Assembly: GCF_051903065.1 (NCBI RefSeq)
Contig: NZ_CP178438.1
Direction: 5' to 3' (one strand)
DNA: 64,000 bases
Source: Escherichia coli
Lineage (GTDB): Bacteria > Pseudomonadota > Gammaproteobacteria > Enterobacterales > Enterobacteriaceae
Made by a program: the position numbers and the translations under genes. This document shows, piece after piece, positions 3,855 through 63,997 of the stretch; the stretch's first letter is position 1; each line of letters starts with the position of its first letter. Below the pieces are notes generated by a model that was not told the DNA's origin, did not search any database, and worked only from the letters and a program-made list of their open reading frames with translations.

Positions 3855-4321
3855 CAGGCATCCTGATGTTCTTCAGTACCTTCGCCAGCCTGCTGCTGCA
3901 AATAGTTCATGAACAGCGCATCGAAGTTAACCGGCGCAAGGTTCAGTTGCGGGAATGTACCGCGGGATACCATGCTGGTGATGCACTCACGAGCATACGG
4001 GAACAGAATGTTCGGGCAGTATGCGCCCAGGCAATGTGCCATCTGGGTGCCTTCGATACCCGCGATGGAGAAAATACCGCCCTGCTGAACTTCACACAGG
4101 AACGCGGTTTCTTCGCCCAGGGAGGCCGTTACGGTAACACGCAGTACCACTTCGTAAACGTCATCTGCCAGTTGAGTAGATGCCGTATCCAGATCAAGTT
4201 TAACTTCTGGCTGCCAATCTTTCTGGAAAACGTGCGGCGCGTTCGGCGCTTCGAAAGAAATATCCTTGGTATAAATACGTTGGATCTGGAAAGTCATTTC
4301 GGTGTTGTTTTGTTCTGACAT
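3854..4321 (-). CDS. secB: Protein-export chaperone SecB
   Basis: 155-aa [36 protein letters not shown]...; recognised as SecB. Confidence 0.95.
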
Positions 4322-20006: not shown

Positions 20007-21023
20007 TTATTTACGGTAATATTTTCGGCAAAGATAACACACTCCTGCAATGAGTCCTGAGATATAATGATGTTGCACTAACAGATGTTTATATCTTTTT
20101 TTGAATTCAATAATTGATTTTGCATCTCGTGGTGAGTCATCTTTCCAGGGGGATCTTTCTAAAGCTATTTTATAGTATTTTACCGATGGATAAATTGCCC
20201 ATTTGTGCCACGGCTTGGTGGCCCCAGTATAATGAATAAGAAGAGTATCCTCTTTTATCAACTCTTTATATTTTTGATGCGTTTTATCTTTTAACTCACT
20301 TTTTATTGTATATATAGTATTGAACTCACGTGGCAGGAATATTGTCATCCCTTTTAGTAGGACATTCATAACGTCCTGGTCAGGATACTTATAAATACTA
20401 TCTTTACTCATAAGAATAGACAGTGCTTTTTCGGTTAGTTTTGCTTCTGTCCATTTTTTTAGGTCTAAGTAAACGACACCAGAATTAAAATACTGCCCCC
20501 GAAGTTCAGGATCAGATAATCTGACTACCGCCTTTTCCTGCATTGGGTCTACATCCCTGACTACTGCAGCCACCGCTCCATTAAACTCTAAATGCAATAG
20601 TTGACTAATATCTCCCTTACAAACTACATCTGCATCAAGATAAAGCAAACGATCAAGAGTTAAACCCAATAATTGAAATGCAAATAAACGGAAGTACATT
20701 GCTCTTGACCAGACCTGTGTACAAGGCAAGCACTGGAGCTTATCAGTGTTAATTCTATATAACGTGATTCTTAATTGGTATTGCTCTGCAAGCTTTGCAA
20801 CTTTTTGAAAAAAAGCATCATTATAAACATCAGCAATAATATAAAAATCAAGATTAATATGTCGATTATTTAGGACAATTGATGTGATGGAAACACCTAC
20901 ACCATCAAGATAATTAGCATCGACACCATAGGCAACATTTAAACATTCACAAGTATTTATATTAGCCAGCCGAAAATCCCAGGCTTTAACTTTATCTATC
21001 TCTATGGCAGGAAATGAGTCCAC
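20007..21023 (-). CDS. waaJ: GT8-family LPS outer-core 1,2-glycosyltransferase
   Basis: 338-aa ORF with GT8 motifs (YLDADVVC, FNSGVVYLDLKKW, DQDVMNVLL, HYTGATKPW). Confidence 0.8.
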   Translation of the reverse strand: MDSFPAIEIDKVKAWDFRLANINTCECLNVAYGVDANYLDGVGVSITSIVLNNRHINLDFYIIADVYNDAFFQKVAKLAEQYQLRITLYRINTDKLQCLPCTQVWSRAMYFRLFAFQLLGLTLDRLLYLDADVVCKGDISQLLHLEFNGAVAAVVRDVDPMQEKAVVRLSDPELRGQYFNSGVVYLDLKKWTEAKLTEKALSILMSKDSIYKYPDQDVMNVLLKGMTIFLPREFNTIYTIKSELKDKTHQKYKELIKEDTLLIHYTGATKPWHKWAIYPSVKYYKIALERSPWKDDSPRDAKSIIEFKKRYKHLLVQHHYISGLIAGVCYLCRKYYRK

Positions 21024-26102: not shown

Positions 26103-27157
26103 AACGACGTACCTGTCGTGGAGGAGGGCAGTAATTTATCGACAGCAGCAATGACATCTGCCGCCGGAATAACCGAAAGATACATCTCATTTCGGTCACG
26201 CTGATCGCGCGTTGGCATTTCCCGGTAATCTCCCGCCCAGAATTGAATCATGTTATTTGACCAGGGACGCCAGAAAATATGATCTGTTGCGCCAAACAGC
26301 GATATCAGCGGCGTATTAACTGCAGCGGCAATATGCGCCGGTGCGGAATCAACGCCAATAAACAGCTGCGCATGATCGATTAACGCACCAAGTTCCGGGA
26401 AGGTCACCTTTCCAGCCAGCGCCGTTACTGGTGGCGTCTGGCATCCCTGCGCAATTTCATTGACGCAGGCCAGATCGTCTTTATCTGGGCCGGACGTCAG
26501 AACGACTTCATAACCACGAGCATGTAAGGCATCAATCACAGCGGAAAACTTGGCGTTGTCCCAGCATTTGAAGATTTGCCGCGCCGTAGGTTGGATAACC
26601 ACATAATTTTGTCCAACACCAGCGTGATCAAGTTCGCGACGCATACGTTTCCAGCTTGCAGGCGGGTAACTCATGGTTGTCTGCTTCACCAACGAATCAA
26701 GTCCCAATGGCGTCAGCACGGATAAGTTACTTTCCACCACATTTCCACCCTGCAACGGCACCAAATGGGTGAAACTATTACGCCAAAAAGCAGACTGCCG
26801 ATGATGATAATCCTGGGAAATTTTCACACGGGCATTTAATAAGCGAACCAGTATAGCAACCATCCATTGATCGGTAAGATTGACGATAAGGTCATACTTA
26901 TTGGCACGTAATACCTTGATGAGATGAAAAAAGTTGGCAATTTTTTCTGAGGCTTTTGCTTTTTTATTTTTTATGCCGTAGAGCGCGTTAATCTCTGGAT
27001 TTTCAGACAGGATCGGGATGGTGTCCTGATAAAGCAGCACATCGATTTTTGCGTCAGGGTAATTTTTTTTCAGCGAACTAATGACGGGAGTAGTTAATAA
27101 CATATCCCCATGAAAACGCATCTTAATGAGCAAAATTCTTCGAAATGGCTTATCCAC
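26099..27157 (-). CDS. waaQ: LPS heptosyltransferase III (GT9)
   Basis: 352-aa ORF MDKPFRRILLIKMRFHGDMLLTTPVISSLKKNYPDAKIDVL...; GT9; first gene of the long core operon. Confidence 0.9.
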   Translation of the reverse strand: MDKPFRRILLIKMRFHGDMLLTTPVISSLKKNYPDAKIDVLLYQDTIPILSENPEINALYGIKNKKAKASEKIANFFHLIKVLRANKYDLIVNLTDQWMVAILVRLLNARVKISQDYHHRQSAFWRNSFTHLVPLQGGNVVESNLSVLTPLGLDSLVKQTTMSYPPASWKRMRRELDHAGVGQNYVVIQPTARQIFKCWDNAKFSAVIDALHARGYEVVLTSGPDKDDLACVNEIAQGCQTPPVTALAGKVTFPELGALIDHAQLFIGVDSAPAHIAAAVNTPLISLFGATDHIFWRPWSNNMIQFWAGDYREMPTRDQRDRNEMYLSVIPAADVIAAVDKLLPSSTTGTSL

Positions 27158-27206
27158 AAGTAACTCTTTTTGTTGAGATTATCCGATTAAGGTGAAGCAG
27201 AAAAAG

Positions 27207-27245
27207 CACGCTACCGCCCCAGGCTCAACAGCTACCTGAATACTG
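27207..27245 (-). promoter_or_regulatory. JUMPstart element with ops site (GGCGGTAGCGTG) in the waaQ operon leader (RfaH-dependent antitermination)
   Basis: Minus strand reads cagtattcaggtagctgttgagcctggggcggtagcgtg; the 12-nt ops consensus is exact at 27207-27218 (forward cacgctaccgcc). Confidence 0.85.
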
Positions 27246-27569
27246 ATACCGCACTGATATTGACGCGCTAGTGTATCACTTCTTTCGCGGCAATCCGACC
27301 CGAATGATTTTTAAGCACATTGTTGATTTTCAATAAAGAAATCAATCAAATAAAATCATTAGCAACCATATTCTTTCACTGTTGCTCTGCGATTCCTTCC
27401 TGCACGTACAGCAGAAATCAATGAATCGCATAAAAATACAAAAAAAGTATAGATGTTCAGCAAGAATTGGCGGGTAAATTGCTATTTAAGTCAAAAACGG
27501 GAAAAGTAATGGTAATGCCACAGCTAAATACATAGAATCCCCAGCACATCCATAAGTCAGCTATTTACT

Positions 27570-29334
<1,765 letters not shown>

Positions 29335-37906: not shown

Positions 37907-41084
<3,178 letters not shown>

Positions 41085-46324: not shown

Positions 46325-46489
46325 AAGGCGGCAGTGAGAAGACCGCCATTTCAGGTTACCCTACCTTCCTGCCGGATGCGATTCACCCTACAAATTCAAT
46401 AAATTATGAATCAATACGCAGGCTTGATAAGCGAAGCGTATCAGGCATTTGTCTTTGTTGCGGCGGCACTTCTACCGCCGCTTCATCGG

Positions 46490-55251: not shown

Positions 55252-55346
55252 GGAAGATCGTCGTCTCCGGTGAGGCGGCTGGACTTCAAATCCAGTTGGG
55301 GCCGCCAGCGGTCCCGGGCAGGTTCGACTCCTGTGATCTTCCGCCA
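55252..55346 (+). tRNA. selC: tRNA-Sec (selenocysteine, anticodon UCA)
   Basis: 95-nt sequence ggaagatcgtcgtctccggtgaggcggctggacttcaaatccagttggggccgccagcggtcccgggcaggttcgactcctgtgatcttccgcca, with long variable arm, UCA anticodon and encoded CCA. Confidence 0.95.
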
Positions 55347-63556: not shown

Positions 63557-63997
63557 TCAATGCAACCAGTGAACGCCCTCGGCAGGCTGAAAGAACGCGT
63601 TATAGCGCATCTGAAAAGCATTAATATCCTGCATTTCAGGTTCGGTTTCGCGCAGAAAACCTAGCGCCAGCCTGACCTGAGCGTCGGTAATCGGCGCGGC
63701 GAGGCGAGCTTTTTGTAAAATCCGATGCCATTGCAGCAGGTTCTGTTCGCTACCATCGACAATGACAATTTGCCAGATGAGCAACACCTGCGCGGCGTTT
63801 TGCAGGTGCGACTCAACCGGACGATGCAAATAACGTAAAAATTCGTCACCAGCTGACTTTCCCATTTGATCGACCATCGACTCCACGGGTACGACATCGA
63901 TGTTCAGCCGATCGCTGAGACGGCGAATCGCTTTTCTGGCCCCGGATGTCAGCACCCGAAAACCAACCACAAACACTACCGCCAGCGTGGCGAGCAT
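63557..63997 (-). CDS. yicN: Uncharacterised protein (YicN-like), start at or near the window edge
   Basis: 146-aa ORF MLATLAVVFVVGFRVLTSGARKAIRRLSDRL...; N-terminal hydrophobic segment; position after nepI. Confidence 0.6.
   Translation of the reverse strand: MLATLAVVFVVGFRVLTSGARKAIRRLSDRLNIDVVPVESMVDQMGKSAGDEFLRYLHRPVESHLQNAAQVLLIWQIVIVDGSEQNLLQWHRILQKARLAAPITDAQVRLALGFLRETEPEMQDINAFQMRYNAFFQPAEGVHWLH

Follow-up and report, generated by a model that had tools for sequence, protein, structure and literature searches.

The intergenic region between the divergent genes waaA and waaQ of Escherichia coli raises the question of what the conserved leader sequence in front of waaQ is: a loading site for RfaH, as a sequence-only reading had proposed, the source of a small RNA, an attenuator or a chance match. 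The region was analysed within a stretch of 64,000 nucleotides (the window), which is E. coli chromosome with the element in the waaA–waaQ intergenic region. The 501 bases around the element matched 5424 of 5426 complete E. coli genomes, with 100% identity to strain SC516, where the annotated features are rfaQ and waaA. The genes concerned are the following.

27570–28847, plus strand: waaA
26099–27157, minus strand: waaQ (rfaQ, heptosyltransferase III), the first gene of the operon, from the list of open reading frames and the PGAP annotation of an identical genome
17215–27263, minus strand: the presumed RfaH-dependent transcription unit, from the open reading frames on one strand, the annotation and the GC profile

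The annotated neighbourhood runs from spoT-rpoZ-gmk to coaD-waaA, followed by the divergent rfaQ-waaG-rfaP-(GT8)-waaB-waaO-rfaJ-rfaY-waaZ-(GlcNAc transferase) and next by rfaL-rfaC-rfaF-rfaD. The gene order of the operon is waaQ, waaG, waaP, a GT8 gene, waaB, waaO, waaJ, waaY, waaZ and waaK, and the sequence points to an R2-like core locus. The ten co-oriented genes occupy approximately 10 kb, and the GC content of the distal part is 31–39% compared with about 50% in the flanks, a profile that is typical of an RfaH target. The ops element thus heads a long, polarity-prone operon, whose sensitivity to H-NS and Rho is presumed. The orientation deduced earlier from ops agrees with this arrangement, as waaQ-waaG-waaP and the rest lie downstream on the same minus strand.

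The start codon of waaQ was taken to be the GTG at 27157, which is the start used by PGAP in the identical E. coli genome. The K-12 annotation of waaQ begins at the ATG equivalent to 27121 (MRYHGDM...) and loses the RILLIK strand, the counterpart in the alignment of the N-termini MRVLIVK of WaaC and MKILVIG of WaaF. In the tblastn comparison with other genera, the alignments begin at residue 1 of the GTG-start WaaQ. Judged by these alignments, GTG 27157 is the likelier start. The Shine-Dalgarno sequence in front of it is very weak (AAGAG at 27168–27164, with an anti-SD duplex of -2.4 kcal/mol), which fits the ribosome-recruitment role that the reviews ascribe to RfaH.

Upstream of this start codon, the minus strand contains the following features.

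27207–27218, minus strand: the ops element GGCGGTAGCGTG, an exact match
27218, 27217, 27214 and 27213, minus strand: the ops bases G1, G2, G5 and T6, the last being the base flipped into RfaH
27208 and 27207, minus strand: the pause position U11 and G12 in the 3' part of ops
27207–27245, minus strand: the JUMPstart element of 39 nt, CAGTATTCAGGTAGCTGTTGAGCCTGGGGCGGTAGCGTG, a full-length match to Rfam RF01707
27220–27238, minus strand: the JUMPstart RNA hairpin of the Rfam consensus structure
27238–27234, 27233–27225 and 27224–27220, minus strand: the 5' arm CAGGU, the 9-nt loop AGCUGUUGA and the 3' arm GCCUG of this hairpin
27239 with 27219, minus strand: an optional extra U-G pair of the same hairpin

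The 12-nt ops sequence GGCGGTAGnnTG is present exactly as GGCGGTAGCGTG at 27218–27207 on the non-template (coding) strand of the waaQ operon, and the minus strand around it reads ...CAGTATTCAGGTAGCTGTTGAGCCTGGGGCGGTAGCGTGCTTTTTCTGC.... No other exact copy exists in the 64 kb of the window, and the 12-mer did not arise in any of 100 dinucleotide-preserving shuffles. Matches with up to two mismatches occurred in the window at chance level (7 found, 4.94 expected). All the bases shown by experiment to matter (C3, G4, G5, T6, A7, G8, T11 and G12) are present, as are the features of the consensus pause, namely the G at -10 (G2, 27217), T11 (27208) and G12 (27207). The distance of ops from the waaQ start, previously given as about 50 nt, holds for the GTG codon, with 49 nt between G12 and 27157; counted to the ATG at 27121, it is 85 nt.

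The 8-nt core of ops, GGCGGTAG, was found five times in the window, always on the minus strand, with 1.15 copies expected and five copies reached in 2 of 100 shuffles. The copies besides that in the leader are located as follows.

20525–20532, minus strand: 8-nt core of ops
38112–38119, minus strand: 8-nt core of ops
46472–46479, minus strand: 8-nt core of ops
63976–63983, minus strand: 8-nt core of ops

One of them (GGCGGTAGTCAG) falls within waaJ, a gene of the same waa operon, on its coding strand. These copies were rejected as functional sites: none of them is accompanied by the full 12-mer or by a JUMPstart, at least three are intragenic (in waaJ, antisense in yicG and one apparently in a reading frame at the window edge), and intragenic ops sites bound no RfaH in published ChIP (PMC9765446). 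Neither a second RfaH-dependent operon nor the rfaH gene itself is present in the 64-kb window.

The whole window was scanned against Rfam at gathering thresholds. JUMPstart (RF01707) was matched over model positions 1–38 of 38 with 55.2 bits, compared with a gathering score of 35, and E = 6.4e-10. The match covers exactly the segment 27207–27245 on the minus strand that had been described from the letters as a 39-nt JUMPstart-like element, and the 39-mer is identical to the waaQ JUMPstart of K-12. The only other match in the window that reached the gathering score was tRNA-Sec (83.8 bits), which corresponds to selC, the gene for the selenocysteine tRNA, at 55252–55342 on the plus strand. The selC gene is well known as a site at which islands integrate.

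A pattern scan of one genome per species returned at least 120 loci, mostly from Enterobacterales, Aeromonas and Shewanella. Approximately 7 of the 120 loci listed are chance matches, which is near the number of about 9 expected for the pattern. Among the same loci, 23 are waaQ leaders, and in most of these the WaaQ homology begins about 40–65 nt past ops. All five stem pairs of the JUMPstart hairpin are formed in 100 of the 120 loci among the matches listed, and the stem variants found among them include CUGGU/GCCAG, CAGGU/GCCUG, CGGGU/GCCCG and CUGGA/UUCAG. The second stem pair is A-U in the waaQ leader and U-A in the rfb leaders, which is a compensatory change. The 5-bp hairpin just 5' of ops is backed by this covariation.

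Enterobacterial-type JUMPstart elements without a fault were also seen in contigs labelled Arthrobacter (2x coverage), Erysipelotrichia (a metagenome-assembled genome) and Chryseobacterium; these are probably the result of contamination or mis-binning.

The start of transcription was placed by homology. In the RefSeq annotation of MG1655, a 73-nt ncRNA, rirA (b4760), lies at 3808166–3808238 on the minus strand just upstream of waaQ, and pairwise alignment placed it at 27263–27192 on the minus strand of the window. According to the reviews, RirA lies within the waaQ 5' UTR, contains ops and JUMPstart, and has its transcription start in common with the waaQ mRNA (PMC5736990, PMC8745692). For RirA and for the waaQ start alike, the sources are the RefSeq annotation and reviews from the authors who described this RNA. 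The features of this part of the leader are as follows.

27298–27293, minus strand: the -35 region TCGGAT of the waaQ promoter, a poor match, yet with a box conserved across genera
27270–27278, minus strand: the putative sigma70 promoter of waaQ/rirA with the extended -10 TG-a-TACACT (hexamer 27275–27270)
27263, minus strand: the predicted transcription start, the counterpart of the 5' end of rirA and of the waaQ mRNA in K-12
27192–27263, minus strand: the homologue of the RirA leader RNA, 72 nt (73 nt in K-12), with 91.8% identity to K-12 rirA

From the end of the extended -10 element it is 7 nt to the position that corresponds to the 5' end of K-12 rirA. The sequence TGnTACA(C/A)T is kept at a constant distance from ops in the waaQ leaders of Escherichia, Citrobacter, Pluralibacter, Silvania, Cedecea, Shimwellia, Kosakonia and others. 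A generic promoter scan did not call this promoter, because its -35 region is weak, and returned only a weak TTGAAA-18-AATCAT candidate at 27333–27304. The -35 region falls into the box (G)TCGGAT(T/C)G (27293–27300, minus strand), which is conserved in many enterobacterial genera in spite of its poor match to a sigma70 -35; this box may be the site of a regulator.

A transcription start downstream of ops, which would leave the element out of the nascent RNA, is at odds with the evidence from other E. coli strains. The K-12 rirA 5' end maps to 27263, and ops should be transcribed because this position is 45 nt upstream of its G1. A sigma70 ChIP-seq peak has also been reported at the predicted start upstream of ops in strain CFT073 (PMC9765446). 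The start region proposed for waaQ in the sequence-only reading is therefore borne out by homology. By the same homology, the leader that has ops on its non-template strand is transcribed and untranslated, and the 3' ends of K-12 RNAs show that transcripts reach ops.

These 3' ends were taken from the Term-seq data of Adams et al. (2021), who found abundant ends at MG1655 positions 3808184 and 3808183 on the minus strand in two conditions, with 62,669 and 116,952 reads (PMC7815308 and its supplements). The site has a Rho score of 1.04, i.e., it is not Rho-dependent, and an intrinsic terminator score of 6.28 (threshold 3.0; PMC7815308). As the K-12 ops occupies 3808193–3808182, the ends coincide with G10 and U11 of ops (27209 and 27208 in the window), the known pause position. 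Ends at these bases imply a leader RNA of 55–56 nt. No RNA 3' end was found in the Term-seq tables near the annotated 73-nt end of rirA, equivalent to 27192 (PMC7815308).

The leader RNA can also be drawn as a longer hairpin that takes in ops. Two further features belong to it.

27242–27255, minus strand: the segment AGUGCG-g-UAUC-a-GU upstream, which can pair with the ops RNA and with the two bases after it (27217–27205) as the outer part of the long leader hairpin
27201–27205, minus strand: a U5 tract one base past ops (the intervening C is 27206), read from the sequence

The predicted fold is an imperfect hairpin of 51 nt (27255–27205) followed by the U tract, with a minimum free energy of -19.3 kcal/mol, which is no better than that of shuffled sequences (z = -0.66). 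In 17 distinct waaQ leaders from about a dozen genera, ops lies in the 3' arm of this hairpin, and a U tract usually follows. Across these leaders, 97.1% of the cells are paired, compared with 28–53% in the slid controls. Nearly all substitutions in the 5' arm leave it able to pair with the invariant ops; a double change, from G-C to A-U, is seen in one pair. In all, two pairs have double changes, a number reached in 77 of 500 shuffles. These counts come from few independent substitution events and from a structure that was itself derived from one of the leaders; because the events are few and common to related genera, the support from covariation is thin. A run of at least four T after ops occurs in 17 of the 23 waaQ leaders and in 15 of the 97 other JUMPstart loci among the matches listed.

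Three other explanations of the leader were weighed against an RfaH loading site. That the ops match is a chance or relic sequence without function in this genome has next to no probability. The 8-nt cores elsewhere in the window, five copies in all, would speak for it, but it is refuted by conservation and position: the full 12-mer did not arise in any shuffle, the covariance-model E-value is as low as given above, and the leader is conserved in 5424 of 5426 E. coli genomes, with its place ahead of waaQ kept in many genera. It is also improbable, though far less so, that the main product is the small RNA RirA and that ops/JUMPstart acts chiefly as RNA, namely as a decoy that ties up RfaH and restrains LPS synthesis, instead of as a loading site in the DNA. 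RirA has been described as a discrete RfaH-binding RNA (PMC5736990, PMC8745692), with 73 nt in the annotation and 55–56 nt in Term-seq. K-12 annotates rirA over the homologous stretch, the short leader RNA is very abundant in Term-seq (PMC7815308), and the potential for a long hairpin in it is conserved. However, structural and biochemical work has shown that RfaH recognises ops as non-template DNA within the paused complex (PMC5995543), RfaH ChIP covers the rfa operon (PMC9765446), the phenotype of the RNA stems from its overexpression, and in Term-seq the abundant end falls on ops U11 and not on the 73-nt end of the annotation. Since the two roles are mutually compatible, a role of RirA would be an added layer and not a replacement.

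It is likewise unlikely, if slightly less so than the decoy, that the waaQ leader is an attenuator of the intrinsic-terminator type, in which the hairpin 27255–27205 and the U tract 27205–27201 terminate transcription just past ops unless RfaH is loaded, the product being the short leader RNA. The 51-nt imperfect hairpin with U5 behind it, the 97% pairing over 17 leaders with a U tract of 5–8 past ops in most, the enrichment of U runs in waaQ leaders among the matches listed, and the terminator score of Adams et al. in the non-Rho class (PMC7815308) are all in line with it. Against it, the K-12 3' ends at G10/U11 are upstream of the U tract and mark the pause position instead of the release point of a terminator, the fold energy does not exceed that of shuffles, the terminator scan of the window was negative, the stem base is weak (two G-U pairs and one A-U pair), and the support from covariation is thin, as set out above. 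An intrinsic terminator that makes the leader RNA was accordingly not supported, and the combination of a stable GC-rich hairpin, a U tract and 3' ends within it was not found at the waaQ leader.

We conclude that the element is almost certainly the ops/JUMPstart in the leader of the LPS-core operon that begins with waaQ (rfaQ) in E. coli, a site encoded in the DNA at which RfaH is loaded. Its sequence, position, strand, family, conservation and operon architecture were observed, and from the published work on K-12 and CFT073 we infer the start site, the pausing, the RfaH binding and the anti-termination. The RfaH dependence of the waaQ operon, which had been claimed from ops, is supported in the same way from other E. 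coli strains, by the RfaH ChIP-seq signal on the rfa locus of CFT073 (PMC9765446) and by the reviews.

The published mechanism accounts for the bases that are present. The ops sequence is a consensus pause of the backtrack type, at which polymerase is halted at U11. In the non-template strand it forms a hairpin with a C3:G8 pair, in which T6 is flipped into a pocket of the RfaH N-terminal domain and G5 is packed beside it; RfaH is no longer recruited after the changes G4C, G5A, A7T or G8C, and T11G causes a strong drop in RfaH-dependent expression in vivo, as would be expected if the pause is essential (PMC5995543). The C-terminal domain of the recruited RfaH refolds and binds S10, while NusG is excluded and pausing and premature termination are suppressed, as summarised in the reviews. 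RfaH also counter-silences the H-NS/StpA filaments on the operon (PMC9765446).

For the waaQ leader of the window, this suggests the following course. Transcription from the sigma70 promoter with its extended -10 would begin at about 27263, as placed by homology, and RNA polymerase would pause at ops U11 (27208) after 56 nt, because ops fits the consensus pause with G at -10 and T-G at positions 11–12. In the paused bubble, the non-template ops would fold into a small hairpin and offer G5 and the flipped-out T6 to the N-terminal domain of RfaH. RfaH would then stay on the polymerase, exclude NusG, suppress pausing as well as Rho- and H-NS-dependent premature termination, and bring the ribosome via S10 to a message whose first gene is nearly without a Shine-Dalgarno sequence. 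The expected outcome is full-length transcription of the AT-rich operon of approximately 10 kb from waaQ to waaK.

The leader was also followed across E. coli genomes. The 72-nt leader has a match with at least 80% coverage in 5424 of 5426 complete genomes and at least 99% identity in 4412 records, with a median of two places per genome. The second JUMPstart place is between galF and rfbB; it was seen in K-12 and on a plasmid-borne O-antigen cluster. The latter is carried by the 52-kb E. coli plasmid p21AR0133D (JUMPstart at 3992–4030) in the order wcaL-wcaM-galF-JUMPstart-rfbBDA, the head of an O-antigen cluster with its own ops. Meanwhile, the waaA–waaQ spacer (approximately 27330–27480) exists as diverged haplotypes within E. 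coli, with at least 99% identity in 4395 genomes, 80–90% in 479 and 60–80% in 477. Between K-12 and the window, the differences are mainly in the middle of the spacer, and the waaA-proximal part, the waaQ -10, the RirA stretch and the JUMPstart are kept.

The waaQ ops/JUMPstart is an already known, ordinary and correctly placed element, and the earlier description of it as expected and well characterised holds. Nothing new about RfaH is learned from it, since the waaQ ops was among the founding examples. Its use is in the annotation of the window, where it identifies the LPS-core operon as a target of RfaH control and shows which way the operon runs and in which region it starts. The conserved structure around the native ops, together with the 3' ends at the pause, is of modest value. 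The conserved RNA structure around ops and the abundant 3' end at the pause pose a testable question about the rest of the JUMPstart, because the mechanistic work used the isolated 12-mer.

The comparison with known systems begins with this question. The 3' base of the JUMPstart hairpin (27220, or 27219 with the optional pair) is 11–12 nt upstream of U11. A hairpin base 11–12 nt upstream of the paused 3' end is the geometry of the class I his pause hairpins. The two are alike in the 5-bp stem, the 9-nt loop and this spacing, whereas work on templates that lacked the native hairpin described the ops pause as backtrack-stabilised or pre-translocated and as biochemically distinct from hairpin pauses. 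The likeness should therefore be read as a resemblance, and membership in the his class is not claimed. RfaH counteracts hairpin-stabilised pausing. Tentatively, and with a low probability, the native JUMPstart hairpin, which abuts the RNA–DNA hybrid, could stabilise the pause in the manner of the his hairpin or stand in the way of deep backtracking, keeping polymerase in register until the scarce RfaH arrives and releases the complex; in waaQ leaders, the ops-pairing helix and the U tract might decide whether unloaded complexes yield the abundant 55–56 nt RNA.

Compared with K-12 RirA (b4760), the leader of the window has the same position, the same predicted 5' end and 91.8% identity, with an identical JUMPstart/ops part, and is thus its homologue. 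It differs at six positions (five substitutions and one U fewer in the tract), all outside the 39-mer. The dominant 3' end in K-12 Term-seq is at ops U11 and not at the 73-nt end of the annotated RirA, and Rfam holds no family for RirA beyond JUMPstart. With the Rfam JUMPstart, i.e., the 39-bp element of Hobbs and Reeves, it shares the full length, the 5-bp hairpin and ops at the 3' end. The differences are one additional loop nucleotide and the 5' box, which is CAGUAU, not CAGCGC/CAGUGC, with a copy of CAGUGCGGUAU just upstream. Finally, the 12-nt sequence is identical to the ops (operon polarity suppressor) of the RfaH operons rfaQ/waaQ, rfb, hly, kps and tra. The setting is also shared, with a long AT-rich operon behind an untranslated leader that carries the element on its non-template strand, and the bases needed for contact and pausing are all there. 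No difference from this class was found, as what is seen here is the waaQ ops of one more E. coli strain.
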